Shown in pieces: positions 4,218-20,000 of a stretch of DNA of 20,000 nucleotides (position 1 is the stretch's first letter; the number at the start of each line of letters is the position of its first letter). Position numbers and translations under genes: made by a program. The stretch is from an uncultured virus (IMG/VR IMGVR_UViG_3300013981_000002) (taxonomy: Duplodnaviria > Heunggongvirae > Uroviricota > Caudoviricetes > Autographiviridae): the IMG/VR virus record IMGVR_UViG_3300013981_000002; one strand, given 5' to 3'. Below the pieces are notes generated by a model. It saw only the letters and a program-made list of their open reading frames with translations, had not been told where the DNA came from and searched no databases.

Positions 4218-4243
4218 TTAGTCCTTGCTTGAGGTTGAGTGGA

Positions 4244-5172: not shown

Positions 5173-5188
5173 TGCGTCCTTCTCGGGG

Positions 5189-6745: not shown

Positions 6746-6908
6746 TCGGAATGGTCAGTCCTTGGTACTGCGTTGCGTTGTTCAGGTCCAGGCGGACCTT
6801 GGACTTACGCCGCTGATCGGCCGCGTGGCCGGTCGGCTGGGTGTCCTGGCGGGTCAGTAGGATCGGGTCTTTCTCCTGCTGGTCCGGCATGTTGGGCTTG
6901 CTGCACAT
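6738..6908 (-). CDS. Small virion / tail assembly protein (gp7.3-like, 56 aa)
   Basis: Manual translation MCSKPNMPDQQEKDPILLTRQDTQPTGHAADQRRKSKVRLDLNNATQYQGLTIPNG. MC- start, basic RRKSKVRLDL and GL.I end. Directly before the portal. Confidence 0.7.
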   Translation of the reverse strand: MCSKPNMPDQQEKDPILLTRQDTQPTGHAADQRRKSKVRLDLNNATQYQGLTIPNG

Positions 6909-6910
6909 GA

Positions 6911-7090
6911 TTAGCGGGCGCGGTGCTCCATCTGCTCGACCTTCCGCAGCGCCTTGAGCCGGAGGATCAGGCGGCGCTCGCCCTGCCGGAGCAGGAACTC
7001 CTCCTTCGGCTGGGCGGGGTCGTAGATCACTTCGGGGTGCAGTTCGTCCAGGAGGTCGATCAGGTCGTAGGAGTGCAGAGGGATTTGCAT
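6911..7090 (-). CDS. Hypothetical protein (59 aa), first gene of the late operon
   Basis: Manual translation MQIPLHSYDLIDLLDELHPEVIYDPAQPKEEFLLRQGERRLILRLKALRKVEQMEHRAR. Strong SD AGGAG. Confidence 0.8.
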   Translation of the reverse strand: MQIPLHSYDLIDLLDELHPEVIYDPAQPKEEFLLRQGERRLILRLKALRKVEQMEHRAR

Positions 7091-7114
7091 AGAACTCCTG
7101 GGTTATGAATAGGT

Positions 7115-7134
7115 GGGGAAACTGACGTTTCCCC
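7115..7134 (-). promoter_or_regulatory. 5' leader hairpin of the predicted late transcript
   Basis: GGGGAAAC-GTCA-GTTTCCCC directly after the promoter motif. Resembles the T7 phi10 leader stem-loop. Confidence 0.7.
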
Positions 7135-7151
7135 CGATGATGACTACTAAA
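7135..7151 (-). promoter_or_regulatory. Predicted phage RNAP late promoter (P3) TTTAGTAGTCATCATCG
   Basis: Intergenic copy of the 17-nt motif, running into a G tract, upstream of the structural genes. Confidence 0.8.
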
Positions 7152-7154
7152 CCC

Positions 7155-7691
7155 CTAGAGTCGGGCCAGCGATTCCGCGACCATCCGCAGGCGGTGGATC
7201 GGGCCGTTGTTGTCGATCACGGTGTCGATCAGGTCGCCGTGGACGCCTGCCTCCGAGGCATGCGCCGAGACCGTAGCCGCGCTGTCGCGGAGCACCTGGA
7301 CCACCTGGCCGCCCCACTCACGGATGAACTGCGCCTCGTTGTCGAAGCGAACGTCCGACACCACGACGCCAGCAGCGCCGTCGCGGCGGGCCTGACGGAT
7401 CTTCTGCGCGACAACCTTGACCCACAGGTCGCGGTCGATCATTTCGCGGCCCCACTCGGTGCCTACGGTCTGCATCAGGCGGCGCGGGGTCTGCCCGTTG
7501 AGCCAGTCGAGCGGCTCCTCCTTGAGCGGGCCGTCCTCCATCGCGGACACCGGCAGGCCGGTGATGTCCGCCACGAAGGCGCGGATCGGGGCCGCGAAGG
7601 ACAGCTTCACGAAGCCGTGGTCGCTGACCAGGAACTCGGCCAGGGTGTCTTTGCCGCTACGGGCGCGGCCGGTGATTCCGATGATCTTCAT
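7155..7691 (-). CDS. Deoxynucleoside monophosphate kinase
   Basis: 178 aa. P-loop GRARSGKDT, TPRRLMQTVGTEWGR, SDVRFDNE and H.SE motifs. SD GGAG. Confidence 0.9.
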   Translation of the reverse strand: MKIIGITGRARSGKDTLAEFLVSDHGFVKLSFAAPIRAFVADITGLPVSAMEDGPLKEEPLDWLNGQTPRRLMQTVGTEWGREMIDRDLWVKVVAQKIRQARRDGAAGVVVSDVRFDNEAQFIREWGGQVVQVLRDSAATVSAHASEAGVHGDLIDTVIDNNGPIHRLRMVAESLARL

Positions 7692-7702
7692 GGGGACTCC
7701 AG

Positions 7703-7730
7703 AAAAGGAAAGGCCCGCACGAGGCGGGCC
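7703..7730 (-). terminator. Intrinsic terminator-like hairpin before dNMP kinase
   Basis: GGCCCGC-CTCGT-GCGGGCC followed by TTTCCTTTT on the minus strand. Confidence 0.65.
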
Positions 7731-7753
7731 GGGGGGGACTTGGGGGAGAGGCG

Positions 7754-7816
7754 CTACCAGCCGGGACGGCCGTGCAGCGCCAGGTTGATGGCGAGGGCCA
7801 GCAGCTTCGGACGCAT
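7754..7816 (-). CDS. Possible 20-aa micro-ORF MRPKLLALAINLALHGRPGW
   Basis: TGATG coupling to the upstream gene and GC3-rich codons. Very short, so uncertain. Confidence 0.4.
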   Translation of the reverse strand: MRPKLLALAINLALHGRPGW

Positions 7817-8022
7817 CAGGCGAAGCACCGGGCGATCAGCCAGGCCGCACCAGCAGCGCCGACAGCGGCCGGCCACAGCTTGACGCGGCCAGCCGAGCGG
7901 TACAGGGCGCGTTCGAGGGTGTTGAGGCTGCGCCACCACAGCCAGGCGGCACCGTAGGCGACGAAGGCGAACAGCACGGCCAGCACGGCGACGATGGTGA
8001 TGAACAGGATCAGGGTTTCCAC
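7816..8022 (-). CDS. Small membrane protein (68 aa, two hydrophobic segments), holin candidate
   Basis: GTG start with AAGGA upstream. Hydrophobic stretches LILFITIVAVLAVLFAFVAYGAAWLWW and LWPAAVGAAGAAWLIA. Confidence 0.6.
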   Translation of the reverse strand: METLILFITIVAVLAVLFAFVAYGAAWLWWRSLNTLERALYRSAGRVKLWPAAVGAAGAAWLIARCFA

Positions 8023-8843
8023 AGCTTCACTTCCTTGGTCTTGGGGTTGTAGTCGCCGTAGCGCAGGATTCGCGCGAGGCGTGCTTGGCGGATCGCATCG
8101 TGCTTCGACAGCGGCTCGGTGCCGCCGCGGGGGATGCGGGTGGTGTAGGTGGTGACGACGGTGTTCCACAGCGCGCCGAGGTGCTCCTCGACGGACGCAT
8201 CGCGGTACGCCTCGTGGATGGGCATGAGCAGCTCATCCGCGCCCTTGTGGCCGATGCCGGGGAAGCCGGGGTAGTTGTCCACCTGGTCACCCGTGAGCAC
8301 CTGCTTCATCCAGAACAGGTCAGCGTCGTGAGCCGAGATTGGCCGGACGCCCACGTCGGGACGGTTGGGGTTGTAGAGACGGATGCCGGGGATCGTCTGC
8401 ATGTCCTTGTCGATGGACACGACGATGCGGCTGCCTGGCGCGCGCTTCGGATTCGGGTGCGAGGCCAGCAGCCCCAGCACGTCGTCACCTTCCAGGTTCT
8501 CGATCTCCACGATCTTGTCGCCGAACTCGTCGTAGACGAACTCGTCGAGCACGTACCACAGGGCAGGCTTGTCCTTGCTGGCACGGTTGAGCTTGTAGGT
8601 CGGGTCGATGTCCTTGCGGAAGTTGTGCTTCTTGCAGGACAGGGCCAGCAGGTAATCACGCGCGCCGAACTTCTCGACGATCTCGTCGATGTAGTCCTCC
8701 AGCTTCGCCTTCGCGCGCTCGGGCTGGATCGCTTCGACCTTGTTGCCGTCGCCGTTCCAGTCGATGTTCGCGGTGTTCGAGAACGCGAGCTGGTAGCGCA
8801 GCACATCGGCGTCGATCAGTAGCAGGGGGCCGCGCTTGTTCAT
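8010..8843 (-). CDS. 5'-3' exonuclease (T7 gp6-like)
   Basis: 277 aa from MNKRG (ATGA overlap). LLIDAD, NFRK.I.P.YK.NR, LEGDD.LG, SIDKD..TIPG and GD.VDNYPGFPGIG motifs. Confidence 0.93.
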   Translation of the reverse strand: MNKRGPLLLIDADVLRYQLAFSNTANIDWNGDGNKVEAIQPERAKAKLEDYIDEIVEKFGARDYLLALSCKKHNFRKDIDPTYKLNRASKDKPALWYVLDEFVYDEFGDKIVEIENLEGDDVLGLLASHPNPKRAPGSRIVVSIDKDMQTIPGIRLYNPNRPDVGVRPISAHDADLFWMKQVLTGDQVDNYPGFPGIGHKGADELLMPIHEAYRDASVEEHLGALWNTVVTTYTTRIPRGGTEPLSKHDAIRQARLARILRYGDYNPKTKEVKLWKP

Positions 8844-8989
8844 GCGTCCACCCACTGCCATCCCAGGAACGCCAGCGCGAACCAGCGGTGCAGCCAGTTC
8901 GGACGCTCCCGGACCTGCACGAAGAAGTTGCCGCCAATGACCCAGGAACCGGCCGCCTGCGGTGGCCGATAGGTGACGTAGGAAGTCAT
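8840..8989 (-). CDS. Small Trp-rich hypothetical protein (49 aa)
   Basis: Manual translation MTSYVTYRPPQAAGSWVIGGNFFVQVRERPNWLHRWFALAFLGWQWVDA. ATGA overlaps at both ends. Confidence 0.7.
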   Translation of the reverse strand: MTSYVTYRPPQAAGSWVIGGNFFVQVRERPNWLHRWFALAFLGWQWVDA

Positions 8990-9297
8990 GGCCGCTTCTC
9001 CGGGTGGCGCTCATACCACGCCTGTAGCTCGGCGGCGTAGCGCTTCATTCCGGCCTGGTACTCCGGGCCGTCGCCGAGCGGGTACTCGTGCTCGTCGCAC
9101 ACGAAGTCGGTGGTCGGGATGGTGTACGGAATCTGCGTGCAGGAGTTCCCCGTACACATCGACTGCCACATGATGATGTAGGAGTTCTCGCTGTGCCCTT
9201 TCAGGCACGAGCCATAGTCCGCACTCGGCGGCCAGGGCTTCATATCGCACGCAGCGAGGCCAGCACACAGCGCCAGGATCAGGAGAGCGCGCTTCAT
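8986..9297 (-). CDS. Predicted lipoprotein (103 aa)
   Basis: Signal peptide II MKRALLILALCAGLAA-C, with four more Cys in the mature part. ATGA overlap with the upstream gene. Confidence 0.8.
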   Translation of the reverse strand: MKRALLILALCAGLAACDMKPWPPSADYGSCLKGHSENSYIIMWQSMCTGNSCTQIPYTIPTTDFVCDEHEYPLGDGPEYQAGMKRYAAELQAWYERHPEKRP

Positions 9298-9542
9298 ACC
9301 ATGCTCTCGTGTACGGCGACCCAGCACTTCTCGCTAACGCGGCGGATGAAGTAGGTCGCGGTGCTCCACTCCACGGGGCGCAGCATGCGCTCGGTGCAGC
9401 ACGGGCACTTGGCGTTGTAGGCATGAACCTCGGGCTGGTGTTCGAGCACAGCCACGCGGTAGGTGGTACACGGATCGATCACGCGGACATCGCCGTCAGC
9501 GGGGCCGCCAATGAAATGCACGCGAAGCCGGTTCTCGTTCAT
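9294..9542 (-). CDS. Hypothetical protein (82 aa) with GGP.DG motif and CPCC
   Basis: MNENRLRVHFIGGPADG... with ATGA overlaps at both ends. Confidence 0.7.
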   Translation of the reverse strand: MNENRLRVHFIGGPADGDVRVIDPCTTYRVAVLEHQPEVHAYNAKCPCCTERMLRPVEWSTATYFIRRVSEKCWVAVHESMV

Positions 9543-9802
9543 CGGTTCGATTCCTTGAGGACTTCCAAGGCGCTCGCTTTGTCGGCGTTGCAACGCTGGA
9601 GGCCGTCCTCGGCGTTGCCGCCGAAGCGGTAGAGGTCGTAGGTGGTGGTGGTCGGGTCAGCCATCACGGCGTCGAGTGAGGAGTGCGTGCCCTCAATGAC
9701 GGTCGGCTGGAGGAACTGCTCCGGCACGACTTTCGAGGTGTGCGCGGCGCAGCTCGTCAGGAATGCGGCGAGACAGGTAATCGCCAGTTTCCGGGTCAGC
9801 AT
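9539..9802 (-). CDS. o-spanin (Rz1-like lipoprotein, 87 aa)
   Basis: MLTRKLAITCLAAFLTS-C lipobox and C-terminal LQRCNADK motif. Starts inside the i-spanin gene in another frame, with GGAG upstream. Confidence 0.8.
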   Translation of the reverse strand: MLTRKLAITCLAAFLTSCAAHTSKVVPEQFLQPTVIEGTHSSLDAVMADPTTTTYDLYRFGGNAEDGLQRCNADKASALEVLKESNR

Positions 9803-10058
9803 TTGCTGCAATCTCCACAGAGCGGTTGGTGGTGGCGCGGGCGTTCCGCAGCGCTGCATCGAAGGCAGAGCGGCGCACGGCTTCGCGGTTGAGGGTCTCG
9901 ACGGTCTGCTTGAGGTCGGCCAGTTCCTTTGCCGACTCCTCCAGCTCCGTCACGCGCTGGGCCATTGCGGTGTACTTCCAGGCTGCGAAGCCGCCAGCCG
10001 CGAGCGCGGCAACGACCAGCAGCGCCGCGAGGGCGCGCAGGATGTTGGTTGGGTTCAT
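9693..10058 (-). CDS. i-spanin (Rz-like)
   Basis: N-terminal TM helix, coiled coil and C-terminal YLSRRIPDEL. Overlapped by a lipoprotein ORF. Confidence 0.8.
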   Translation of the reverse strand: MNPTNILRALAALLVVAALAAGGFAAWKYTAMAQRVTELEESAKELADLKQTVETLNREAVRRSAFDAALRNARATTNRSVEIAANADPETGDYLSRRIPDELRRAHLESRAGAVPPADRH

Positions 10059-10378
10059 CGGTTCTCTTGGACGTAACAGGCGACTCGCAGAAGCTCCGAG
10101 GGAGTCGCGTCGGACTTGATCTGATTCGCGCGTGCGGAGATCACGCGCACGTTGCCCCGGACGTAGCCGAGGTCAGGTTCGATGCGGTCGAGCGTGGGTG
10201 AGTTGGGGCCTTGGGCCTTGCGCCCGACAGCGCGGTACAGCGGGATGCCCAGCGCCGGGCAGAAGTCGGGGACCGCGATGTCGTCCGACGTGAGGTCGAA
10301 CGGCAGTCCCTTTCTTGCTGCCCGGCGTTTCGCTTGGCGCACCAGGGCGAGTGCAATGTCCCGCTTGCCGCGGATCAG
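10055..10378 (-). CDS. HNH-like (beta-beta-alpha) endonuclease
   Basis: AKRRA..KGLPFDLT, CP.LG, PTLDRIEPDLGYVRGNVRVIS.RAN.IK motifs. Start uncertain (CTG 10378 or TTG 10393). Confidence 0.75.
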   Translation of the reverse strand: MIRGKRDIALALVRQAKRRAARKGLPFDLTSDDIAVPDFCPALGIPLYRAVGRKAQGPNSPTLDRIEPDLGYVRGNVRVISARANQIKSDATPSELLRVACYVQENR

Positions 10379-12213
10379 TGCGTCTCCGCCCAATTCCTTC
10401 CGATCTTGAACTCGCCATCGAGCGGACAGCGGAAGCCGAAGTGGTCGCCAGCTTTGCGGATGGCGGCCTGGGCGGTCTTGCCCACGAACTCGGCCTTGTC
10501 CTCGTCCACTTCGATCTGCCACTCATCGTGGACGTTGGCGAGGAACTCGTAGTGGACGCCCGGCACCAGCCCTGCGGCTTGCAGGTCGGCGTCGAGGATC
10601 ACCAGCGCCTTCTTCATCACCAGCGCACCGGCCGACTGGAGCAGGGTGTTGAGCGCAGCGTGGTCGCTGCGGATGTGCAGCTTCCGACCGTCGAGGCCAA
10701 TCAGGTATCCCTTTTCGGCCGCGCGCTTCTTGACCCCGCGCACCAGCTTCTCCAGCGCAGGCAGTCCGGCCAGGAACTTCGAGCGGAGCTTCGCGCCGGC
10801 CTGTCGTCCCTTGCCCACGATGGAGCCGAGCTTCGCGTCGCCTGCCCCGTAGAGGAAGGCGTAGATGAAGGTCTTGGCGTTGTCGCGGGTGGGCAGTCCA
10901 GCCGCCGCCTGGTTGACCGAGTGGATGTCGCCTTCGAGGATGACTTTGGCGTACTCACCGCCATCGTGCTTCGCCATGAAGTGCGCCAGGCAGCGCAGCT
11001 CCAGCCCCGAGGCGTCCGCGCCGACCTGGAGCTTCCCTGTCGGGACGCAGAACAGAGAGCGGCATTCCTTGCCGTAGGGCACGCCGCACTTCGGCACCTG
11101 GGCGATGTTCGGCTTAGAGTGCGTCATGCGGCCGGTCACCGCCGCGTTCTGATTCACGCTGCCGTGGATTCGGCCATCTTTCTTGATGGCCTTGAGCCAT
11201 GCCTCGTCGCCCTCGGCAAGCTGGCCGAGACGCTTGTTGACGATGAAGTGCTCCAGCAGGAGCGGGATGATCGGGAACTTGAGCGCGCCCAGGACATCTT
11301 CGTCGATCTTCGGCTGGCCCTTCTCGGTGAACTCCTGCGGTTGCCAGCCATACATCGCGGTCAAGCGGTCAGCGATGTGCTGGCGACTCGCCGGGTTGAA
11401 CACAACGTCCTTGTAGGTCGTGACCTCCACGCCCTTGACGTAGCCGCGGCGCTTGTCGTCGCGCTTCGGTACGAACTTGCGCTTCACCACCTTCCACGGC
11501 GGGATGACCTTGCGCAGCTCGGCCTCCAGCGCGGTGCGCCGGGACACGAGGACGCACTCCAGCTCGCGTGCCTTCTCCTGATCGAACAGGTAGCCGTAGC
11601 GCTGCTGACGCGAGAGGATCGGCGCGACGGCCTGCTCCAGCTCAATGGCCTCGGTTGGGAGGCCCTTGCTCATCAGCAATGCGAACAGGGCTTGGGTGAC
11701 CGCAACGTCCTGGTCGCAGTAGTCGTCCATTTCCTGAGACCACTGCGCCCAGGGGTCGAGGCCGCGTGCGACCATCTGCGCCGCGTAGTCGCCTTTCCAG
11801 CGACCGAGGCGGTAGCCCCATGCTTCGAGGGAATGGCGGCCGATCAGCTTGCCCGGCAACACCGGGTTCGCTCCCTGCTTCTTGCGGGCTTTGAAGTCGC
11901 GGTCCTTGAGGTCCGGGTAGACCAGCGTGGACATCAGCAGCGTGTCGAAGTACGCCTGGACCTTGAAGTCCGGGAACACCTTGGCGATAGCCGGAATGTC
12001 GAATCCGGCGATGTTGTGGCCGACAACGCGCGTGGCCTTCTTGAGCCTCTCGACGGCCTGACGGACTGTCATTTCGCCCGTGCCGTGATCGTTGGCGGAC
12101 AAGATGGGACCGCGCGGTGCGCCGGTCTCATCTACCTCTTGGAGGGAAATGCAGTGGATCGTGTCAAGTTCGTCGAGGAGGCCATTGGTCTCGCAGTCGA
12201 ATACGAGGATCAA
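10375..12213 (-). CDS. DNA polymerase family A with 3'-5' exonuclease (T7 gp5-like)
   Basis: FDCETNG, GHNIAGFD, HSLEAWG, TGRMTH, DASGLELRCLAH, RDNAKTFIYAFLYG and VHDEWQ motifs. TTG start with GGAGG SD. Confidence 0.97.
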   Translation of the reverse strand: MILVFDCETNGLLDELDTIHCISLQEVDETGAPRGPILSANDHGTGEMTVRQAVERLKKATRVVGHNIAGFDIPAIAKVFPDFKVQAYFDTLLMSTLVYPDLKDRDFKARKKQGANPVLPGKLIGRHSLEAWGYRLGRWKGDYAAQMVARGLDPWAQWSQEMDDYCDQDVAVTQALFALLMSKGLPTEAIELEQAVAPILSRQQRYGYLFDQEKARELECVLVSRRTALEAELRKVIPPWKVVKRKFVPKRDDKRRGYVKGVEVTTYKDVVFNPASRQHIADRLTAMYGWQPQEFTEKGQPKIDEDVLGALKFPIIPLLLEHFIVNKRLGQLAEGDEAWLKAIKKDGRIHGSVNQNAAVTGRMTHSKPNIAQVPKCGVPYGKECRSLFCVPTGKLQVGADASGLELRCLAHFMAKHDGGEYAKVILEGDIHSVNQAAAGLPTRDNAKTFIYAFLYGAGDAKLGSIVGKGRQAGAKLRSKFLAGLPALEKLVRGVKKRAAEKGYLIGLDGRKLHIRSDHAALNTLLQSAGALVMKKALVILDADLQAAGLVPGVHYEFLANVHDEWQIEVDEDKAEFVGKTAQAAIRKAGDHFGFRCPLDGEFKIGRNWAETH

Positions 12214-12225
12214 CGGCGGTCCTCC

Positions 12226-12876
12226 TTACGGGTAGCCGTGGTTGGTTACGGGGATTGCGCGGACGCGGCGGCGGGCGCGGAGGATGTACTCCGGCTCGGG
12301 GGCCTTCGGCGGCGTGTGGACGCCCTGCGGCGCGTGGCCGGGGAAGTCGTCGTCCTCGAAGAGTTCGCCCTGCTCGGGCTGGTCGGGATGCAGCGTGTAG
12401 CCGTAGTCCTCGACGTAGTGCGTGATGCGGCGGATGGTGCGCTCGGTGCCGTTGTTGTTCAGCACGAACAGCAGCTTCTCCGATGCGTCGGCAACCGCGC
12501 CTTCGAGGGATACGACCACCACCTCGTCGGTGCTGGGTTCGTAGATGGCGACATGGGCGCAGCACCGCAGATCGAACCGGGCGCAGTGCTCGTGCGGCGT
12601 ACCAAACTCGAAGCCGATCAGGCTCACGAGGTGACCCTCGGGCGAGCGGAAGTTGCGGATGCCGTTCGGAGCGGCCTCGCTGGTCCAGTCGCTACGGCCG
12701 CTCAGGTACGCGGCCACGTAGGTGTAGCTCGCAAGTGACACGAAGAAGCAGTCGATGTCCTTGATTTCGGTCCCGTCGTAGAACGCGCGCAGGCTTCCGC
12801 CACCCAGGATCACCAGGTGGCGGACTTCGGCCGGCAACACGTCGAACAGGGACCGAGCGTGTTGCTCGGCAGTCAT
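12226..12876 (-). CDS. Nucleotidyltransferase (pol-beta superfamily, CCA/poly(A) polymerase head-like)
   Basis: GGGSLR...KDIDCF signature and downstream RFDL. SD AAGGGA. Confidence 0.7.
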   Translation of the reverse strand: MTAEQHARSLFDVLPAEVRHLVILGGGSLRAFYDGTEIKDIDCFFVSLASYTYVAAYLSGRSDWTSEAAPNGIRNFRSPEGHLVSLIGFEFGTPHEHCARFDLRCCAHVAIYEPSTDEVVVVSLEGAVADASEKLLFVLNNNGTERTIRRITHYVEDYGYTLHPDQPEQGELFEDDDFPGHAPQGVHTPPKAPEPEYILRARRRVRAIPVTNHGYP

Positions 12877-12886
12877 GGTTGGTCCC

Positions 12887-13135
12887 TTAGCGGATCAGGT
12901 TGGTGAAGCGCTCGGCGACGCGCAGGGCGCGCTCGGCTTCTTCCTCGTGCTCGTCGGCCTGCGAGTGCAGGACATCGGCCTTGTCGCGCAGCGTCGAGGC
13001 GGTGGCGATGCGGTCGGCGCTGATCTTGAACAGCTTGTCCACCTGGCCCTCCAGAACCTTCACCACGTCGGTCACGGTGTCCTTGCGGAACGGAGCGGTC
13101 AGCAGGTCGATTGCGATTGCGACGATCTCTTTCAT
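12887..13135 (-). CDS. Helical/coiled-coil hypothetical protein (82 aa; positionally gp4.3-like)
   Basis: SD GAGGA, ATGA overlap, Ala/Glu-rich helix. Confidence 0.7.
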   Translation of the reverse strand: MKEIVAIAIDLLTAPFRKDTVTDVVKVLEGQVDKLFKISADRIATASTLRDKADVLHSQADEHEEEAERALRVAERFTNLIR

Positions 13136-13323
13136 TGGGGTAGTTCCTCGGCTTTGATGTGGATGACCACGCGCCGCCCAGGCTTGCCGTACATGACACG
13201 GCAGGCTTGGTCGGAGCGGGGGAGTTGGTAGGGGAGAACGAGGCTCTCAGCGAAGGAGAGCGGCGCATCAGCTGGGATGAAGCCGACGACCGAGCGGCCG
13301 TCAGTAGTCGGAGGTGGATACAT
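13132..13323 (-). CDS. Hypothetical protein (about 63 aa)
   Basis: MYPPPTTDGRSVVGFIPADAPLSF... fills the gap between the helicase and the next gene. Start uncertain. Confidence 0.5.
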   Translation of the reverse strand: MYPPPTTDGRSVVGFIPADAPLSFAESLVLPYQLPRSDQACRVMYGKPGRRVVIHIKAEELPQ

Positions 13324-14932
13324 CGGATGACTCGTCGGCGAAGTCGCCGTATTCGCCCGGAGCATCTGCATTGAGCAGGCGGCCGGATGCGTGGTCGTAG
13401 CTGTAGTAGAGAACCTGGCCGTTCGACTGGCCGGTGAAGCGATCCTTGAGGACACGGAAGGTCGTGCAGTTGCGCTCGGCCTCGTTCTCGGCCTGCGTAT
13501 TGCGCTCCAGGCCAAACGCGAAGTGCGTCCAGAAGCCAATCGCGCGGCTGCCCTTGAAGTGACGGAGCATCACGCGCCCGCCTTCCTCGTGGGGCTTGCC
13601 TTCCGGCGTGGCGAGGTGCGAGACCAGGTAGATGCAGATGAGGTGGCGCTGCGCGAACTGCGCGATCTTCGCCATCGTGTCCTCCAGCATCTTCCGCTCG
13701 TCCTCGGCACCGGCCGCGAACGACGTAAGGTTGTCGAGCACGATGTGCTTGACGCCCTCGGCGACGACCATGTGGGCCATCTTGGCTTCGATCACGTCCC
13801 ACTCGGACGAGCCGAAGTGGTCGTAGATGAACACCTGGCCCTTGTCGAGAATCTCGAACGCGGCTTCCAGTTCCTCCTGCGTCCAGCTCCCATCGGGAAC
13901 GTGGAAGCGGCGGCCCGCGACCTTGCCTGCCATGCGCTTCGCCGTCTCGACCGGCTGCTGCTCCAGGAAGAACAGGCCAACACGGTCGCCGGTTTCCTGC
14001 GCGATGAAGGCTGCTTCCTCCATCAGCCAGTCGGTCTTGCCGATGCCGGTGCCCGCGCCGAAGGTGTAGACCTCGCCATACCGCTTGCCGTAGGTCAGCG
14101 CGGTGAGGCGCGGATCGTGCCAGGGCATGCCCATCGAGACGGGCTTGAGTGCCTTCTCCTTGAGGGAGCCGAACGTCACCACGCCATCGGGGCGCTTGGT
14201 CTGCGCTTCGTAGATGGCGCGAGTGATCGCCTCGGCGTCGCCGCGCTGGAGCAGCTCGTTCGGGTCTTTCGCGGGGAGCTGTGCGATCTTGGCCTTGCCG
14301 GGAGTCAGCAGCAGCGCCACTTCCTGCGCGGCGGCCTGGCCCGGTTCGTCCATATCGAACATGAGCACGACCTCGTCGAAGCCATTGACCCACTCCAGCT
14401 CGCGCTTGATGGACTTGGCTGCGGCTTGTGCCCCGTTCGGGACGGACACCACCGGCCAGCGGAGGCCGAGTGCCTGCGCCACGGAGAGCGCATCAATCTC
14501 GCCTTCGGTGATGACGAGGCGTCGCCCCGGTTCGTAGAGGTGCTGGCCGAACAGCCCGCACGCCTTCGAGTCGCCGATGAACGAGAACTTCTTGTCGGGG
14601 TAGCGGAGCTTCTGCGCGACGATGCCGCCATCGCGCTTGTAGTTGGCGATCTGCACGGTCTTGCCGTGCTTGTCCTTGCCGATCCAGTAGCCGTACTTAC
14701 GGCATGCTTCCTCAGTGATACCGCGCTTCGCCAGGGCTTGCGGTTCACCCTCCGCAAAGTCGCTCATGGTTTTCCTGCTGGTGGGTTGAGAGACCTCTTC
14801 GCCTTCGGCTGGCTCGTAGTGACCGCAGCCGAAGCAGTAGCCGTGCCCGTCGCTGTAGCGCGCAAGGTTGTCCTTGCTGCCGCAGTTCGGACACGGCTCT
14901 TTGTGGAGGTATTCGGAGTCAGCGCTTTGCAC
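13301..14932 (-). CDS. DNA primase-helicase (T7 gp4-like)
   Basis: Zn finger CPNCGSKD...YCFGC, TOPRIM ITEGEIDA and FDMDEPG, Walker A GAGTGIGKT, LVSHL and LKDRFTG. Confidence 0.97.
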   Translation of the reverse strand: MQSADSEYLHKEPCPNCGSKDNLARYSDGHGYCFGCGHYEPAEGEEVSQPTSRKTMSDFAEGEPQALAKRGITEEACRKYGYWIGKDKHGKTVQIANYKRDGGIVAQKLRYPDKKFSFIGDSKACGLFGQHLYEPGRRLVITEGEIDALSVAQALGLRWPVVSVPNGAQAAAKSIKRELEWVNGFDEVVLMFDMDEPGQAAAQEVALLLTPGKAKIAQLPAKDPNELLQRGDAEAITRAIYEAQTKRPDGVVTFGSLKEKALKPVSMGMPWHDPRLTALTYGKRYGEVYTFGAGTGIGKTDWLMEEAAFIAQETGDRVGLFFLEQQPVETAKRMAGKVAGRRFHVPDGSWTQEELEAAFEILDKGQVFIYDHFGSSEWDVIEAKMAHMVVAEGVKHIVLDNLTSFAAGAEDERKMLEDTMAKIAQFAQRHLICIYLVSHLATPEGKPHEEGGRVMLRHFKGSRAIGFWTHFAFGLERNTQAENEAERNCTTFRVLKDRFTGQSNGQVLYYSYDHASGRLLNADAPGEYGDFADESSDVSTSDY

Positions 14933-15098
14933 GCTCCACGGACCACATGCGCTTGCGGTAGGAAATGCCGAGGCGACGGTTCAGCGCACCCTTGACGGTG
15001 CGGCCCAGGCCGCGGAACGGCTTGTCGGCGCTCGCCCATGCGCGCTCGAAAGCCAGGCGCATCGCGGACGGAATGACGGTGGTGGCGGTGTTGGTCAT
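14919..15098 (-). CDS. Small basic hypothetical protein (59 aa)
   Basis: Manual translation MTNTATTVIPSAMRLAFERAWASADKPFRGLGRTVKGALNRRLGISYRKRMWSVERAKR. SD GGAG and ATGA overlap. Confidence 0.65.
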   Translation of the reverse strand: MTNTATTVIPSAMRLAFERAWASADKPFRGLGRTVKGALNRRLGISYRKRMWSVERAKR

Positions 15099-15481
15099 GC
15101 GTTCTTCTCCAGCAGGAACTTGGTGAATGCGGCGACTTCTTCGGTCGCATCGTTTGCGTCGAGGCCCAGCTCGTCGGTGCAGTAGTTGCGGTACAGCTGG
15201 AGCAGCGCATCGACGCGGTACTGCTTCGGAGCGCGGCGCGCTTCCAGGAGCGGGGCCTTGCTGCGGCGCTGACGGCGCGACAGGCGATAGCGCGTGTACC
15301 GCTGCCCCGAGGCGTCCTCGCAGGTCTGCGTTTCGATCTCGAAGCCAGTAGCACGCAGCTCATCGACGCGCGAGGCGAGGCGGCGGATGCGGTAGACGCC
15401 TTCGGCCTGCCACGAGGTCAGGTGCGAGTGGCGACGCAGGTGATCCAGGACGACCTGGGTTTGCGGGGGCAGCGGTTTCAC
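15095..15481 (-). CDS. Winged helix-turn-helix protein
   Basis: Q...VL.HL.....LT..QA...Y.I.RLASRV.ELR..G..I.T........YTRYRL pattern. SD AGGAG before GTG. Confidence 0.75.
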   Translation of the reverse strand: MKPLPPQTQVVLDHLRRHSHLTSWQAEGVYRIRRLASRVDELRATGFEIETQTCEDASGQRYTRYRLSRRQRRSKAPLLEARRAPKQYRVDALLQLYRNYCTDELGLDANDATEEVAAFTKFLLEKNA

Positions 15482-15492
15482 GTTGGGTTCTC

Positions 15493-15855
15493 CTATCGAG
15501 GGAAGTCAGGTGCCCACACGACGGGCTTGCCGTAGGCGGCGAGCAGGCGTCGCAGCGCGGCGTGTTGGGCTTCGGTGAAGTTGTCCTCGGGCTGCATGGC
15601 GTCGTTGACGCCGCCCAGGAGGCAGACTTGGTATGCGGATTGGTTGTGCTTACCGGCGAGAGCGCCGGGCTGATTTAGCGGGCGACCGTCGTAGATCGAG
15701 CCGTCACGTTCGATGACGAAGTGGACGGCGATCTTCGAGTAGCCCTGCGAGCGGTGCAGGCGTGCGAGTTCCTCGCCGGTCGTGACCTGCTCGGGGCGGG
15801 TCATGCTGGCGAGGACGAACAGCGCCTCTACCGATTCCAGAGGTTTGAGGCGCAC
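15493..15855 (-). CDS. T7 lysozyme (gp3.5, amidase-fold) homolog, apparently catalytically dead
   Basis: HFVIERDG, GR, VCLLGG and NFTEAQ..AL align to T7 lysozyme, but the Zn and catalytic residues are absent. Confidence 0.85.
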   Translation of the reverse strand: MRLKPLESVEALFVLASMTRPEQVTTGEELARLHRSQGYSKIAVHFVIERDGSIYDGRPLNQPGALAGKHNQSAYQVCLLGGVNDAMQPEDNFTEAQHAALRRLLAAYGKPVVWAPDFPR

Positions 15856-16293
15856 TTAGAGTTTGTAGAGGTGGACTTCGGTGCGTGGTTCTTCGTCCGG
15901 CTGCGCCCAGCGCTTACCGGAGAGCAGCCACATGACTTGCTTGTCGTCGGCCCAATAGCCGGTGGCTTTGGTCACAACGTCCATCGGCCCCTTGGCGAGG
16001 TTGTCCACGTCGCCCTTGGGAAACGCGGCCTTCGAGGTCTTGGCGCGTTTGCATACCGCGATGATGACTACTAAAACCGGATCGGTCGGCGATAGGTCCA
16101 GATCACCGGCTGGCAGATGCTTCTCTGCCGCTTCCTTCCAGGTCTTGTAGGTCTTGCCGTAGTAGACGCCCCAGCGCGATACCTTCGGGCGCGAGGCGGG
16201 CACCGGGTCGAACGGGAACGTGAGGGAGGCCAAGTGCTTGGCCCCCCTCGCGGTGTCCACGATGACCGACAGCGGATCAGTAGTCGCCGTCAT
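15856..16293 (-). CDS. rusA: RusA-family Holliday junction resolvase
   Basis: PVPASRPKV, GDVDNLAKGPMD and WADDKQV match the RusA DxDNxxKxxxD and DDxQ motifs. ATG at 16293 with GAGG SD. Confidence 0.85.
   Translation of the reverse strand: MTATTDPLSVIVDTARGAKHLASLTFPFDPVPASRPKVSRWGVYYGKTYKTWKEAAEKHLPAGDLDLSPTDPVLVVIIAVCKRAKTSKAAFPKGDVDNLAKGPMDVVTKATGYWADDKQVMWLLSGKRWAQPDEEPRTEVHLYKL
16059..16075 (-). promoter_or_regulatory. Predicted phage RNAP promoter (P2) inside rusA
   Basis: Exact copy of TTTAGTAGTCATCATCG, using codons TTA GTA that are rare in this GC-rich genome. Confidence 0.72.
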
Positions 16294-16942
16294 CGCCCTC
16301 GTCGTCGGAGTCGCTGTCGTCGTCCGAGTCGTCATCGCTGTCGCTGAACGGCGCGCTGTCGTCGGCCTCGTATCCGTCCTCCTCGCCGAAGCCGTAGTCC
16401 TTGGCGTTGCGCTGGCCGAACTCGACCAGTTCGATCACCTGGACGGCGACCATGTAGCAGGTCAGGTAGAACTTCTTGGCCGATTCGACGAACGAACCAC
16501 CGATCTCGTAGGAGACCTTGAGTTCGCTGCCGCCGCCGATCTGCGGCGGGTTGTCGATCTTCTTGCCGCGGGCGTCGAAGATGTCCGGGCGCATGGTGAA
16601 CTTCTTGCCGGTGCGCTTGCTGACGCCGCTGGCCTTCATCTTGAACTTCACCAGCACGCGGCCGGTGTCATCGCCGTTCTCGTCGGTTTCTTCGGTGAAC
16701 ACCGGGGCCACTTCGGCACCCTTCTTCTTCTTCGGGTTCTCGCTCAGGAACTCCTGGAACAGCTCGTCGCGCCGGGTTTCCAGCTTCTTCGCCAGCGCCT
16801 TGAAGTCCTTGTCGTTCGGGTCGAACGCCAGGCTCACGGTGTATTCGCCTTCCGGCTTGAACTTGGTGTCCGGTTCGTTCAGTCGCGGCCACACGGCGGT
16901 GCCCTTCGGGGAGACGAATCGTTCGCGCTTCTTGGTTGCCAT
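16277..16942 (-). CDS. Single-stranded DNA-binding protein (T7 gp2.5-like)
   Basis: SPKG.A.WP.L..PD, KFKM.AS and IGGGSELKV motifs, with a long acidic tail ending in an aromatic residue (DGDY). Start at ATG 16942 (TGATG). Confidence 0.92.
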   Translation of the reverse strand: MATKKRERFVSPKGTAVWPRLNEPDTKFKPEGEYTVSLAFDPNDKDFKALAKKLETRRDELFQEFLSENPKKKKGAEVAPVFTEETDENGDDTGRVLVKFKMKASGVSKRTGKKFTMRPDIFDARGKKIDNPPQIGGGSELKVSYEIGGSFVESAKKFYLTCYMVAVQVIELVEFGQRNAKDYGFGEEDGYEADDSAPFSDSDDDSDDDSDSDDEGDDGDY

Positions 16943-17100
16943 CAGTTGTCGGTCTCGTAGTTGGTCGGGAGATAGATGCCCGCTCGCCACAGGTCGGCGG
17001 CGGCGGTCAGCGGGGTGTCGGCGGAAATGCCGAAGGCTTCGTCGATGTCGAAGCCGACGAGCGCCTCGTCGATGAAGGCGTCGGTGATCGGGTCACGCAT
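16942..17100 (-). CDS. Small acidic hypothetical protein (52 aa)
   Basis: MRDPITDAFIDEALVGFDIDEAFGISADTPLTAAADLWRAGIYLPTNYETDN. TAATG and TGATG coupling at the two ends. Confidence 0.7.
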   Translation of the reverse strand: MRDPITDAFIDEALVGFDIDEAFGISADTPLTAAADLWRAGIYLPTNYETDN

Positions 17101-17384
17101 TACGGGTAGTGCGGTTTCAGCTCGCGCTCCGCGTAGCGGCGCACGGCGTTGAGGGTGTTGACCTGCCGGTAGCGGCAGTCCTGCTCCATGCGCGAGACGA
17201 CCCGCAGCACTTCCATCGGATCGAGGCCGAGCACTTCGCAGAAGTTCTTGAAGGCGCACGCCAGGCCGATCACCTGATCGGCCGGGTGACCGAGGGATTG
17301 CACGCTGTCGATCACGACGAAAGCGCCGCGTGCGGCGCTCTCGGCAGAACGTGAGTGCAGTCCGTCGATGACGCGATCACGCAC
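17100..17384 (-). CDS. Hypothetical protein (94 aa)
   Basis: GTG start with GGAG upstream, typical codon usage, coupled to neighbours. Confidence 0.75.
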   Translation of the reverse strand: MRDRVIDGLHSRSAESAARGAFVVIDSVQSLGHPADQVIGLACAFKNFCEVLGLDPMEVLRVVSRMEQDCRYRQVNTLNAVRRYAERELKPHYP

Positions 17385-17520
17385 CTGCGTGCAGCTCCGT
17401 CATGCGGTGCTTGAACTCCTCGACCGTGCCGTGTTCGGCCGGGTTGTAGATGCCGAGGACCACACCGAAGTGGTCTTGGGCAACGTAGGTGTTCAGTGCG
17501 TGCTGGTAGTTGATGCTCAT
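17377..17520 (-). CDS. Hypothetical protein (47 aa)
   Basis: Manual translation MSINYQHALNTYVAQDHFGVVLGIYNPAEHGTVEEFKHRMTELHAGA. Fills the gap after RNAP. Confidence 0.65.
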   Translation of the reverse strand: MSINYQHALNTYVAQDHFGVVLGIYNPAEHGTVEEFKHRMTELHAGA

Positions 17521-17564
17521 GTGGATGTTCTCGTTTGGGGTATCAATTGCCAAAGGGGGATGGA

Positions 17565-20000
17565 CTAGGCAAAGAAGTAGCGCGACTCCAGCACCAGGCT
17601 GAGGTCCAGGTCGCCGTGCGGCGGGAGTGGTGGAAGTTTCTCTGCCGCTTCTGGCGGGAGCTGCTCGACGAGTTGCTGTCGGAAGTCGGCCAGTACGTCG
17701 CCGCTGTACTGATCGACGAACGCCTGCCGGAGCGCGGCGGCGAGGATTGCTGCCTTGCCCGCGTGTGTACCGTAGGAGTCATGGATCATTGCGAACGACT
17801 CGATGCCGTTCTCTGCCGCGAGGCAGGTGGTCAGCATCATGTGGCTGGCGTCACAGGAGTGGACGAAGTTCGGGCTGATCCCGAGGGTCTGCCTGCGACG
17901 GTCGAGCTTCGTACCGCCGATGTTGACTACTAAATTCGTCAGTCGGCCGCCCAGGTGGGCCTGGACGCGCACGCCTTCCTCCTCGCGGTACTCCTGGAGG
18001 ACCGGGAAGCCAGCGGGGGTCGTCCAGCTCACCGGCAGGTCGGCCGACGAGGCGACCTTAGAGGCATCGCGCAGCCAGTCCATCGCCGCGCGGGCCGCGA
18101 TCACGACCTCGCCGATGCACTCCCACAGCAGGGTCGCCAGGTACTCGGCGGTTTCCCAATCGTCCTCCATGCCCAGCTTCTTGAACTTGGAGAGCACCTG
18201 GGCGCGCATGCCCGACTTCGTGACGCCGTAGGGCAGCGTCATCACCGGCTGCTTCACGATGTCGCGGGTGAGCTGGCCGTCCAGCTTGATCGCCAGCGGG
18301 TCGCCGCCCTCGGCACGGGCGCGGAGCTTCTCCTGCGCCACGTCCTTCACGCGCGAATAGATGTCGGCGGGCTTCGGCTGCGGGATCAGGTTGGTGGCTG
18401 CGCCGCCCACGGAGTCGCGGAGCATGGCCGAGAAGTTCTGGAGGCCGTTGCAGGAACCGTCGAGCGCGATGGGCAGATGGGAGACGTGATCGCGGCCGTT
18501 GAGGCTGTAGCCGAGCCACTCGAAGCACGCGGCCAGCGCGCAGAACGGGCTGTCGGCGTCCATCCAGAAGCGTTGGCCGTCCAGCGGATCGAGGGCGCTG
18601 TCGAGAATCTGCTCCTCGTGCTCGCGCACCCAGGCCACGCGCTTCTCGAACGACACCTTGTCCACGCCGAAGCAGTTGGCAACGTGGATGGCGAGCCAGT
18701 AGGCACCGTCCTCGCCGAGCGGCACGCCTTGGGCGAACGTCAGCAGGCCCTTGGCCGCATCATCACCCTGCGGGGTCAGCGTCGGGGGCAGGGGGTAGCA
18801 ACGGCCGCGGAAGTCGAGGTTGTGCGGGAAGTAGATCGCGGGGTACTCGGCGAACTTCTCCGCCAGGGCGATCTTCTGCGCGGCGGCGAGGCGGGTGGAC
18901 ACGCTGCGCGCATTGGCCTCGTAGACCTTGGCGCGGTCGCGCTTCCATTCCTTGAACTCGTCGGCGTGGTGCTCCTTGAAGTAGTCCGGGTCGGTCTCCA
19001 GCAGGGCAGGGCGGCTCGGCAGGTCCATCAGCTCGCGCTCCGGCAGCCCGGCGACACCGCCGCCTGCGTTCCACAGCTCGCGCATGACCTCCAGGACTGG
19101 CACGTTCACCTTCCAGGCGGTTGCCTGGATGGCATTGAGGGCCTGGTAGACGTTGGGCATATCGACCAGCGCCAGCTCGCGCTTGTAGGCGCGGTTGCGG
19201 GTACGCACAAGGTCCGCCCGGCCGCCGATGTCGGTCAGGTAGCCGCCGTCGCGGGGCGTGGTCCACGGACGGGGCGGGACGACCATCGGCATCAGCACCG
19301 GCTGGTACAGGGCGGCGCTGTCGTGGGCCTTGGTCAGCCAGTCGAGCACCTTCTGATTCCCGGCGATCAGCAGGTGGCGCTTGCCGCGCTCGGCCACGGT
19401 GACCAGCTCGACCAGTCCGGTCGCCTCGACGAACAGCTCGATGAGCTTCATGCCCACCAGCAGGGCGTCCTTGTCGGACAGGTAGAGGCGCTTGTCGTCC
19501 TCGGGGCTGAACTCGGCGTCGGCAACGACGTGCCGCATCACTGCGGTGGAATGCCGAGCCGAAGTGGACTTCTTGAGCTGCTCCTGGACGACCCGGTATA
19601 GGCCGGGATGCTTCTCGCGGAGCAGGGAGAAGTTGATCTCGTTGGCGACCTCGTGGCCCAGGGTGATCGCCACGGACACCGCCTTGCGGTGATCGGCGAC
19701 GAGCGCGTTGACGCAGGTGAAGCTGGTCAGATAGGCGAGGGCGTGGGGGTTCAGGTGGCGGATGAACTTGAGGGCGGCGTGGCGCTTGCCCGGCTTGCCG
19801 GTGTCGGCTTCGGCCACGAACGCCGCGATTGCGGCGGCGGTGGCGTCGATGCTCTCCAGGACCAGCTTGCGGCCGGGGCCGGTCTCGGCCTCCTGGCGCT
19901 GCTCCCTGATCTTCTCGTAGCGGGCAATGCCCAGGCTGGTGCTCTCCTTCTCCAGTTCGAGCTGGGCGGCGTGCAGGTCGTTCTCTTGCCAAGTCGTCAT
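17565..20000 (-). CDS. T7-type single-subunit DNA-directed RNA polymerase
   Basis: 811 aa. DFRGRCYP, LDGSCNGLQ, R.IVKQPVMTLPYG, PNFVHS.DASH, IHDSYG and C-terminal YFFA. The ATG lies at the window edge, so an upstream start cannot be excluded. Confidence 0.98.
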   Translation of the reverse strand: MTTWQENDLHAAQLELEKESTSLGIARYEKIREQRQEAETGPGRKLVLESIDATAAAIAAFVAEADTGKPGKRHAALKFIRHLNPHALAYLTSFTCVNALVADHRKAVSVAITLGHEVANEINFSLLREKHPGLYRVVQEQLKKSTSARHSTAVMRHVVADAEFSPEDDKRLYLSDKDALLVGMKLIELFVEATGLVELVTVAERGKRHLLIAGNQKVLDWLTKAHDSAALYQPVLMPMVVPPRPWTTPRDGGYLTDIGGRADLVRTRNRAYKRELALVDMPNVYQALNAIQATAWKVNVPVLEVMRELWNAGGGVAGLPERELMDLPSRPALLETDPDYFKEHHADEFKEWKRDRAKVYEANARSVSTRLAAAQKIALAEKFAEYPAIYFPHNLDFRGRCYPLPPTLTPQGDDAAKGLLTFAQGVPLGEDGAYWLAIHVANCFGVDKVSFEKRVAWVREHEEQILDSALDPLDGQRFWMDADSPFCALAACFEWLGYSLNGRDHVSHLPIALDGSCNGLQNFSAMLRDSVGGAATNLIPQPKPADIYSRVKDVAQEKLRARAEGGDPLAIKLDGQLTRDIVKQPVMTLPYGVTKSGMRAQVLSKFKKLGMEDDWETAEYLATLLWECIGEVVIAARAAMDWLRDASKVASSADLPVSWTTPAGFPVLQEYREEEGVRVQAHLGGRLTNLVVNIGGTKLDRRRQTLGISPNFVHSCDASHMMLTTCLAAENGIESFAMIHDSYGTHAGKAAILAAALRQAFVDQYSGDVLADFRQQLVEQLPPEAAEKLPPLPPHGDLDLSLVLESRYFFA
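17918..17934 (-). promoter_or_regulatory. Predicted phage RNAP promoter (P1) inside the RNAP gene
   Basis: TTTAGTAGTCAACATCG, 16/17 identical to P2 and P3. Confidence 0.7.

Follow-up and report, generated by a model that had tools for sequence, protein, structure and literature searches.

The RNA polymerase gene of a T7-like prophage of Stenotrophomonas maltophilia carries, within the codons of the enzyme's specificity loop, what is probably a real, selected copy of the prophage's own RNAP promoter, most likely the one that serves the middle genes. The site exists, it is constrained at the DNA level, its position is fixed, and it covaries with the other promoters of its genome and with the putative reading residues of the polymerase. 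The window (the whole 20,000-nt stretch of DNA that was analysed) represents this prophage, has its genes on the minus strand, and contains the polymerase gene and its loop as follows:

17565..20000, minus strand: T7-like single-subunit RNA polymerase gene (P0001), 811 aa, with its start codon at the window edge
17901..17990, minus strand: specificity-loop codons, Y671-D700, aligned by HMMER with T7 739-770 (loop limits as stated in PMC8874028)

The polymerase is homologous over its full length to the T7 RNAP chains of the PDB (HMMER, 1aro_P, E 3.9e-141), and its two Pfam domains, RNA_pol (PF00940, E 1.7e-120) and RPOL_N (PF14700, E 2.2e-21), both pass the curated cut-offs. In the alignment the catalytic motifs 'ialDGSC' and 'mIHDSyGT' pair with 'lafDGSC' and 'lIHDSfGT' of T7, and the C-terminal end 'yffa' pairs with 'fafa'. 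HMMER aligns the putative base-reading arginines R678 and R686, which precede PNFVHS, with T7 R746 and R756, and the remaining putative reading residues, Q680 and T688, with N748 and Q758. The register of the loop, matched by eye to R756-L-Q758 in the preliminary description, holds in this alignment, because R686-L687-T688 is placed on T7 R756-L757-Q758; small gaps occur within the loop in the same alignment.

The putative promoter is a motif of 18-19 nt that occurs three times in the window, each time on the gene (minus) strand. The copies and the features around them are:

17918..17936, minus strand: embedded promoter copy, AATTTAGTAGTCAACATCG, which codes for N689 to I694 and starts the G695 codon; its promoter positions would be -18 to +1
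16059..16077, minus strand: second promoter copy, within a RusA-like resolvase gene (15856-16335); 3/19 mismatches; carries a TTA codon
7135..7153, minus strand: third copy, a predicted intergenic late promoter; 3/19 mismatches; after the dNMP kinase stop and before a 59-aa ORF and the portal gene
7115..7134, minus strand: stem-loop (8-bp stem, -14.6 kcal/mol, z -1.66) located where the late transcript is predicted to begin
7155..17520, minus strand: genes of DNA metabolism (middle genes) that follow the embedded promoter, from a PHROGs scan, with a 47-aa ORF read from the sequence

The embedded copy, previously given as 17918-17934, begins directly after R686-L-T688 and reads AAT TTA GTA GTC AAC ATC G, which translates as N689 L V V N I694, with the final G opening the codon of G695; reader and target do lie in overlapping DNA, as had been proposed. 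The G at 17918 would be position +1, judging by a related lineage in which the motif ends in CTATAG. The copies of the Lysobacter lineage have this ending, as does the T7 consensus that PMC10134795 quotes. The codon frame of the loop copy recurs in the copy at 16059-16077 (TTA GTA GTC ATC ATC, L V V I I), which is intragenic, not intergenic, a point that the preliminary description had missed. The copy at 7135-7153 sits exactly in the gap preceding the portal module; the stem-loop at 7115-7134 is not significant by itself, because its z is only -1.66. None of 200 dinucleotide-preserving shuffles gave any motif match, and a repeat search returned the same three-copy family (D13). The gap past the RNAP stop was already described as lacking a copy, and 17385-17564 indeed contains none. 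An AT-rich origin past this stop was rejected, the 47-aa ORF beginning 45 nt beyond it. Between 17000 and 18400 there are no sigma-70-like sites and a single weak terminator-like site, at chance level, and both a sigma-70 promoter and a terminator were rejected as readings of the loop site; as to known RNA families, Rfam gave no match.

Codon choice shows that the loop site is under constraint at the DNA level. TTA accounts for three of the 548 leucine codons in the 20 ORFs of the window, and two of these three sit in the two coding motif copies; GTA accounts for 20 of 431 valine codons and AAT for 19 of 171 asparagine codons in the same ORFs, and the embedded copy uses the rare codons AAT-TTA-GTA in succession. 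Other lineages have different promoter-matching codons at the same loop positions, for example ATA, which is used for none of the 230 isoleucine codons in the 20 ORFs, a count that applies to this window and not to the genomes of those lineages. In the codons of the loop's descending arm, the embedded copy lies in the one reading frame that can be used.

Does the loop DNA of relatives match the promoters of the genome in which it resides? Of the 33 different loop 18-mers, 16 match another site on the same strand of their own genome with no more than 3/18 mismatches (13 with no more than 2). For another seven, a site at a fixed distance upstream, 2.19-2.35 kb away, agrees with 4-5 mismatches. 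This site, which precedes the RNAP gene, has kept that distance from the loop copy in 15 lineages; short GGTGAC repeats adjoin it in relatives. No opposite-strand match at three or fewer mismatches was found in 45 loci, and in most loci other 18-mers of the same genes reach 16/18 in about 0.1-0.8% of windows. G001 and G002 have three collinear sites each, with a control value of 0. The loop position is retained down to 57% RNAP identity, though gaps exist past the stop codon.

The sequence of the site, in turn, has changed extensively, with 20 distinct partner cores among 23 lineages. In a matrix of these lineages, loop copies differ from their own partner by 2.87 mismatches and from the partners of others by 8.72 (0.83 and 5.05 of 8 for the core only), a comparison tilted toward agreement, because the site that matched the loop best was taken as the partner. 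In 20 of the 23 lineages the row minimum falls on the lineage's own partner, and 0 of 100000 permutations reach this value, a count that is not a probability, because the lineages are related. Loop copy and partner differ at -14 in 14 lineages, at -17 in 11, at -3 in 11 and at -8 in 5; the loop copy is seldom a perfect promoter and may be a weak one.

The base at -10 is uniform across the copies of a genome and is A, G or C, which go with the loop residues Q680/R-L-T, R/R-E-V and N/R-K-V, respectively. Arginine at the N748-equivalent position accompanies -10 G in 4/4 lineages, and glutamine accompanies -10 A in 5/6. Promoter changes coincide with changes of loop residues (Ser/Asn in L039/L043, Asn/Thr in L007/L020). 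Taken together, these sequence comparisons support the view that the motif behaves as the promoter of the phage RNAP.

The expected match between loop DNA and own promoter, with covariation, is found in relatives with exceptions: seven loop variants (L022, L023, L025, L026, L044, L046 and L048) have no detectable partner site and keep similar, ITVAI-like residues with ordinary codons, and the loop copies of L034 and L038 deviate within the 8-base core from the promoters of their genomes, by 3 and 2 bases, respectively. Relatives that retain LVV-like residues with unrelated codons, the observation that the preliminary description had set against its own proposal, occur in one subclade. In the AGK-type subclade (L022, L023, L025, L026, L033, L044 and L048) no late or upstream promoter copy was found. 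A conserved stretch past its RNAP stop was rejected as a promoter and is taken as a translation signal, because it resembles the leader ahead of the RNAP start. A further site of this subclade, 840-930 nt past the RNAP end, is conserved in four genomes and matches the loop only in L033 (17/18). In 40 loci with RNAP identity of at most 48%, loop-region DNA is nowhere above background, nor is it in LUZ100, which has annotated phage-specific promoters; the 'promoter' under the RNAP of UNO-SLW1 is only a mid-gene sigma-70 prediction and is irrelevant here. Among isolated phages, the GenBank collection that was searched offers no polymerase above 43% identity, and the group is therefore known only from prophages and metagenomes.

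A change of promoter specificity can be seen between close relatives. The window and the L007-type prophages are 98% identical (98.4% for the RNAP protein) and differ in an exchanged patch of the loop and, in each of the other promoters, in one base, at -10:

17928..17972, minus strand: mosaic patch, with 14 differences from the L007 type in one 60-nt bin; the other 40 bins have 0-6

The patch spans both loop arms and ends at the -10 base of the promoter. In the same bin there are only 5 differences from L021, which is 21.6% diverged overall. The -10 base is the sole difference between the 16059-16077 copy and its L007-type counterpart, and the sole difference inside the motif between the 7135-7153 copy and that of G001. 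Reads of RNA run X24, from an L007-type prophage, break off at 17937 in window coordinates. The idea that a loop swap would carry a promoter along is thus borne out to the extent that a swap bearing the promoter's variable base is visible between 98%-identical genomes.

What would the loop copy do? Whole-genome searches of Dyella marensis, Lysobacter sp. and one complete provirus each returned exactly three prophage sites: one ahead of the RNAP gene, one in the loop and one ahead of the late genes. The Dyella marensis and Lysobacter sp. genomes contain one unrelated 3-mismatch match each, in 5.3 and 6.7 Mb. In none of the three did a site other than the loop copy turn up between the start of the RNAP gene and the late promoter, which fits the earlier suggestion that it drives the middle genes. 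In three other lineages the equivalent late copies follow the loop copy by 10.4-11.5 kb. The window stops at the RNAP start codon, and its own upstream copy would fall outside the visible sequence. Transcription would start at the G at 17918, about 350 nt ahead of the polymerase stop, and feed the middle genes, which the PHROGs scan lists, besides the 47-aa and a 94-aa ORF, as a gp2.5-like SSB, RusA, an amidase, a primase/helicase, a DNA polymerase, an endonuclease VII/HNH, an exonuclease and the dNMP kinase. The loop site would then be the counterpart of phi1.1 of T7 or phi2 of LUZ100, in this clade's minimal promoter set, which consists of a pre-polymerase copy for self-amplification, the loop copy and a copy before the structural genes, to which the Stenotrophomonas lineage would add a fourth, inside RusA. 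All of these promoters would have to follow the specificity of the polymerase; the loop copy would for this reason shift along with them and drag the loop residues it encodes. RNA run X24 represents the L007-type prophage as a silent lysogen, with a depth of 2-4 on both strands of the RNAP region and no start listed; run X22 has no reads and X21 three reads on the window, and X13 provides contigs only.

Is the location in the loop itself meaningful? We give not quite an even chance to the view that it is a frozen accident, in which a middle promoter arose in a tolerant 3' stretch of the gene and was kept by descent, its link with the loop being meaningless. The loop makes up 96 of 2433 nt, and by our estimate a promoter confined to the final 500 nt would land in it with a chance of about 0.2; stops in two of three frames leave few places that can hold the 'ATAAAA...CTAG' type, and one subclade does without a loop copy. 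T7 too has several promoters inside coding sequences, and overlap with codons is ordinary there. Set against an accident, while compatible with one, are the retention of the position to 57% RNAP identity despite the post-stop gaps, and the mosaic patch, in which loop and variable promoter base move together.

More tentatively, the overlap could be adaptive, with the reading hairpin and its cognate promoter forming a single cassette, roughly 70 nt long, that is passed on and traded as a whole. If so, a loop swap between related phages would come with a functional middle promoter of the right specificity, and each mutation of the loop promoter would simultaneously mutate the loop. Natural specificity switches would be eased, which would explain why this clade has so many distinct pairs of polymerase and promoter, with only 3-4 promoters each.

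It is improbable that the loop site binds the polymerase mainly as a brake, in line with the autoregulatory roadblock that the preliminary description had raised, interfering with transcription of the polymerase gene from upstream and balancing, by negative feedback, a positive loop set up by the pre-gene promoter. Such a brake would suit the cognate promoter that relatives have directly before the RNAP gene, an arrangement shared with LUZ100 (PMC10134795), the mostly slightly off-consensus loop copies, and the position of the site upstream of the part of the gene that encodes the essential C-terminal portion of the enzyme. The loop site is nevertheless the sole candidate middle promoter in three genomes, which argues for productive starts. 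Somewhat less probable still is a decaying relic whose promoter function has been lost in this prophage. The loop copy does depart from the other two window copies at -5 (A, where both others have T), -16 and -17, and the AGK-type subclade, with its similar residues and ordinary codons, looks as expected after loss. The rare codons are retained, however, and a relic is unlikely to fit, because it would not track the -10 change between 98%-identical genomes or the -1 and -5/-4 changes of L020 and L021, all of which are mirrored in the loop copies. Finally, that the motif is a chance repeat or an operator for another DNA-binding protein, such as a repressor, is very improbable: polymerase binding is putative and GGTGAC repeats adjoin the upstream copy in relatives, but the variable base shifts together with residues aligned to base-reading positions of T7, all copies point the same way as the genes, 0/200 shuffles gave a match, and the layout agrees with the annotated phi1 and phi2 of LUZ100.

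With a selected promoter copy in the loop codons as the preferred reading, the DNA-reading part of the polymerase and its target share the same bases, and have done so through complete turnover of the target. This offers a direct handle on the natural switching of polymerase-promoter specificity, and the 98%-identical pair, with its loop patch and one base per promoter, is a case caught in the act. For synthetic biology, the lineages supply about 20 distinct natural cores with matched loops, from genomes that use 3-4 promoters.

How does this arrangement compare with known systems? In T7, phi1.1A and phi1.1B lie just downstream of gene 1, and there as here the first phage promoter is at the end of the polymerase gene, from where it feeds the DNA-metabolism genes of T7 and would feed those of the prophage. 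The difference is that here the promoter lies inside the polymerase gene, whereas none is known within gene 1 of T7. LUZ100 (OP329100.1) is a temperate T7-like Pseudomonas phage with eight phage promoters, among them phi1 directly before the RNAP gene, for which its authors propose a positive feedback loop, and phi2 about 20 nt past the RNAP stop (PMC10134795). Its RNAP is 41% identical to that of the window, and it resembles the window's relatives in having a phage promoter just ahead of the RNAP gene and few phage promoters; the downstream order of a small ORF, gp2.5 SSB, junction resolvase and amidase is shared. Unlike phi2, which follows the stop codon, its counterpart here lies 350 nt upstream, within the loop codons, and the best match of LUZ100 loop DNA to its own promoters has 5/18 mismatches, at another offset and in a non-motif part. 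The integrase and MarR regulator that LUZ100 has beside its RNAP are absent on the upstream side in L007, where the DNA is that of the host (tig, clpP, clpX, lon, HU and ppiD-like) and RNAP is the first prophage gene.

In the literature searched, which included PMC10134795 and PMC11880802, both by term, there is no description of a promoter inside specificity-loop codons. PMC11880802 (NAR 2025) mined natural RNAP-promoter pairs for recognition rules, with the specificity loop as the coupled region, and its main text lacks the terms 'prophage', 'intergenic' and 'within the coding'; an embedded promoter would, by comparison, give residue-base coupling unrelated to contacts. In T7 and T3, loop and promoter co-vary (the N748D switch; R746 with -7, R756 with -9, Q758 with -8, T760 with -6), the T760 contact to -6 is reported from simulations, and P759L/S arise in directed evolution (PMC8874028). 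The prophages resemble them in that the core bases and the loop residues aligned with the T7 positions change together (-10 A, G and C accompany Q, R and N, respectively, at the N748 equivalent), and differ in that the loop itself encodes one promoter copy, so that the residues aligned to T7 P759-N764 are dictated through the genetic code. These promoter-written residues may touch bases -6 to -4, in which case the promoter partly encodes its own reader. For covariation studies, a loop-encoded promoter copy implies that in such genomes some loop residues track promoter bases through the genetic code and not through contacts.

The DNA that encodes the specificity loop of the polymerase appears, from sequence comparison, to contain a promoter read by that same polymerase. 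The window has the T7 gene order, with every gene on the minus strand (PHROGs, Pfam), and Pfam has no family for the 47-aa or the 94-aa ORF that follows the RNA polymerase (RNAP):

17565-20000, minus strand: RNAP, then two small ORFs
17380-17520, minus strand: previously unlisted 47-aa ORF, starting 45 nt past the RNAP stop and overlapping the start of the 94-aa ORF
After the small ORFs, minus strand: gp2.5-like SSB, RusA-like resolvase, amidase
Next, minus strand: primase/helicase, DNA polymerase, endonuclease, exonuclease, dNMP kinase
Last, minus strand: portal, scaffold, capsid, tail tube

The 19-mer at 17918-17936 has two more same-strand copies with three mismatches each, and none of 200 dinucleotide-preserving shuffles yielded any match to it:

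17918-17936, minus strand: copy 1, AAT TTA GTA GTC AAC ATC G, polymerase residues N689-I694
16059-16077, minus strand: copy 2, within the RusA-like gene, in the same frame, encoding L V V I I
7135-7153, minus strand: copy 3, intergenic, after the dNMP kinase stop and ahead of a 59-aa ORF that precedes the portal gene

HMMER alignment to the T7 polymerase chain equates R678, Q680, R686, L687 and T688 with T7 R746, N748, R756, L757 and Q758. The passages retrieved from PMC8874028 place the T7 loop at residues 739-770 and pair R746 with -7, R756 with -9, Q758 with -8 and, in simulation, T760 with -6; the motif therefore encodes the residues just after the descending reading residues. The preliminary description had put it in the loop codons, and the register bears this out. 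The codons themselves are unusual. Among 6001 codons of 20 window ORFs, TTA accounts for 3 of 548 Leu codons, GTA for 20 of 431 Val, AAT for 19 of 171 Asn and ATA for none of 230 Ile, and two of the three TTA codons sit in the two coding motif copies. The motif requires these codons; the protein does not.

Is the motif shared by relatives? In 45 loci whose RNAP is at least 57% identical, comprising 33 distinct loop 18-mers, each loop 18-mer, taken at a constant offset ahead of the PNFVHS codons, was searched against the remainder of its locus. A same-strand partner with at most three mismatches exists for 16 variants (at most two in 13 of these), and for seven more the partner, with 4-5 mismatches, occupies a fixed position 2.19-2.35 kb upstream that immediately precedes the polymerase gene; one (L034) has six mismatches there, seven have no partner, and two (L042, L047) come from loci without upstream DNA. 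No opposite-strand match with three or fewer mismatches occurs in the 45 loci. With other 18-mers from these genes, only about 0.1-0.8% of windows reach 16/18 in most loci, and about 1.5-10% reach 15/18. The motif has turned over extensively (20 distinct 8-nt cores in 23 lineages). With partners selected as best matches to the loop, the loop copy differs from its own-genome partner by 2.87 mismatches on average, versus 8.72 from other genomes' partners, and by 0.83 versus 5.05 in the 8-nt core. The own partner is the best match in 20 of 23 lineages, and none of 100000 permutations reached the observed value, a count that is not a probability because the lineages are related. A loop-independent all-against-all repeat search regained the loop/upstream pair in L045, a complete phage record, and a loop pair in L033. 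Few residues of the region vary as much as the six encoded ones (entropy 1.0-2.6 bits, versus 0-0.5 for the following GTKLD).

Several features suggest that the motif is the phage polymerase's promoter. Every copy is co-oriented with the genes, and neither a sigma-70-like site nor an Rfam family was found at the loop copy. Within the Stenotrophomonas lineage, all copies of a genome share one -10 base (A, G or C), and the aligned reading residues differ with it: Q/R-L-T with A, R/R-E-V with G and N/R-K-V with C. Across lineages, all four with Arg as the N748 equivalent have -10 G, and five of the six with Gln have -10 A. We infer +1 at G 17918, because CTATAG closes both the Lysobacter-type motif and the T7 consensus quoted in PMC10134795. 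Whole-genome pattern searches of Dyella marensis (5.3 Mb), Lysobacter sp. (6.7 Mb) and a complete 44.4-kb provirus found three prophage sites per genome: one ahead of the polymerase gene, one in the loop and one preceding the late genes, 10.4-11.5 kb past the loop copy. Dyella marensis and Lysobacter sp. each have only one further match, unrelated and with three mismatches; the copy within RusA is an extra of the Stenotrophomonas lineage. The loop copy is likely a middle promoter, since the searches found no other candidate from the polymerase start to the late promoter in these three genomes.

A recent switch of specificity is recorded in the window. Compared with the L007 type, 98%-identical prophages with another loop, 2.8% of the bases of the polymerase gene differ, but the 60-nt bin of the loop holds 14 differences and the remaining 40 bins 0-6; the same bin has just five differences from L021 despite 21.6% overall divergence. 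The patch (about 17928-17972) spans both hairpin arms, and its final difference is the promoter -10 base, which is also the sole difference within the RusA-internal and late motif copies; in RNA-seq of a strain that has the L007-type loop, reads stop at 17937. The loop was swapped as one patch, and point changes followed at the remaining promoters. Other closely related pairs show promoter changes that double as loop amino-acid changes: in L039/L043 (89% identical), G/A at -5 in both copies gives loop Ser/Asn, and in L007/L020 (86% identical), changes at -5/-4 give Asn/Thr.

The observation is confirmed. The earlier interpretation is supported in part: the comparison it proposed finds that loop DNA matches and covaries with the promoters of its own genome in the relatives that have a partner, and the loop swap carried the promoter -10 base along; the seven partnerless variants do not fit. 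These, mostly of a single subclade, keep ITVAI-like residues in ordinary codons, and no promoters were found for them, neither upstream of phage type nor by the all-against-all repeat search; this looks like loss of the embedded copy. An 18-nt stretch 840-930 nt past the RNAP end (L033:3664-3681) is conserved in four genomes of the mostly partnerless AGK type (L033, L022, L026, L048) and matches loop DNA, 17/18, in L033 only. The loop copy is also seldom a perfect promoter: position -14 mismatches the partner in 14 of 23 lineages, with ATA (Ile) in the loop where the consensus would give AAA (Lys), and positions -17 and -3 do so in 11 of 23 each. Core bases are discordant with own promoters in L034 (three) and L038 (two), and the L028 group has T instead of G at -8. 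That the overlap is a frozen accident is a serious reading, because the loop occupies 96 of the 2433 nt of the polymerase gene, so that a middle promoter needing only to lie near the 3' end would by our estimate land there with a chance of about 0.04-0.2, and because few places can hold the common 'ATAAAA...CTAG' type, which has stop codons in two of three frames. The mosaic patch demonstrates real consequences of the coupling of loop and promoter, though not selection for that coupling.

Prophages of Stenotrophomonas maltophilia and S. sepilia encode an RNAP 98% identical to the window's, and farther relatives occur in Lysobacter, Dyella and uncultured Gammaproteobacteria; IMG/VR contributed 79 loci. 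In the GenBank phage collection, polymerase identity is 42.6% at most, and all 2792 matching records fall below 60%. Upstream of the L007 RNAP, positions 1-9700 are host DNA (ppiD-like, HU, lon, clpX, clpP and tig genes); RNAP therefore opens the prophage at its left end, and any early region that lies ahead of it in the free phage is detached from it by integration. At this end, directly upstream of the pre-RNAP promoter, L007:9742-9810 carries five or six GGTGAC(A/G)(C/T) repeats, also upstream in L011, L014, L019, L028 and L045 and as GGTGCC or GGTGGCA forms in other lineages, which are candidate arm sites for an integrase or operators for a repressor. AGK-type loci have, by eye, an apparent tRNA-gene 3' end about 330 nt upstream of RNAP and, several kb upstream, 18-nt tandem arrays of GGTATACGGCAATGCACA-like repeats (L023:590-760, L026:3300-3680, L048:1800-2010). 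At L037:8380-8470 and L013:9880-9930, the upstream promoter is succeeded by runs of CCCTAAAG/CCCTAAGG-like repeats, reminiscent of the arrays of short repeats close to the ends of the T7 genome. An 8-bp GC-rich stem-loop (7115-7134, minus strand; -14.6 kcal/mol, z -1.66) starts at base 2 of the predicted late transcript. In X24, an RNA run of a silent L007-type lysogen, 7338-9338 and 2002-4669 reach depths of 40-260 with strong strand bias, the rest of the prophage 2-8; the RNAP region has a depth of 2-4 on both strands, with no transcript start observed there. The two deeply covered stretches may be a lysogen-expressed moron or antisense RNA, and in that strain 392 other letters replace 7701-7816. 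Several very small RNA libraries labelled as other organisms (5-16 million letters; RT-PCR/oligo-dT) contain about half of the sampled words of the prophage stretch, which suggests contamination by Stenotrophomonas or its phage.

Full-text literature searches, including on temperate T7-like phages, and term searches in PMC10134795 and PMC11880802 turned up no promoter inside specificity-loop codons. In 40 loci of more distant clades, the loop region scores no higher than background. In LUZ100, an annotated temperate T7-like phage, phi1 directly precedes the polymerase gene and phi2 follows the gene's stop by about 20 nt; the LUZ100 loop DNA, unlike that of the window's clade, bears no likeness to the phage's promoters. 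Together with the distant loci, LUZ100 thus indicates that the embedded promoter copy is specific to the window's clade.
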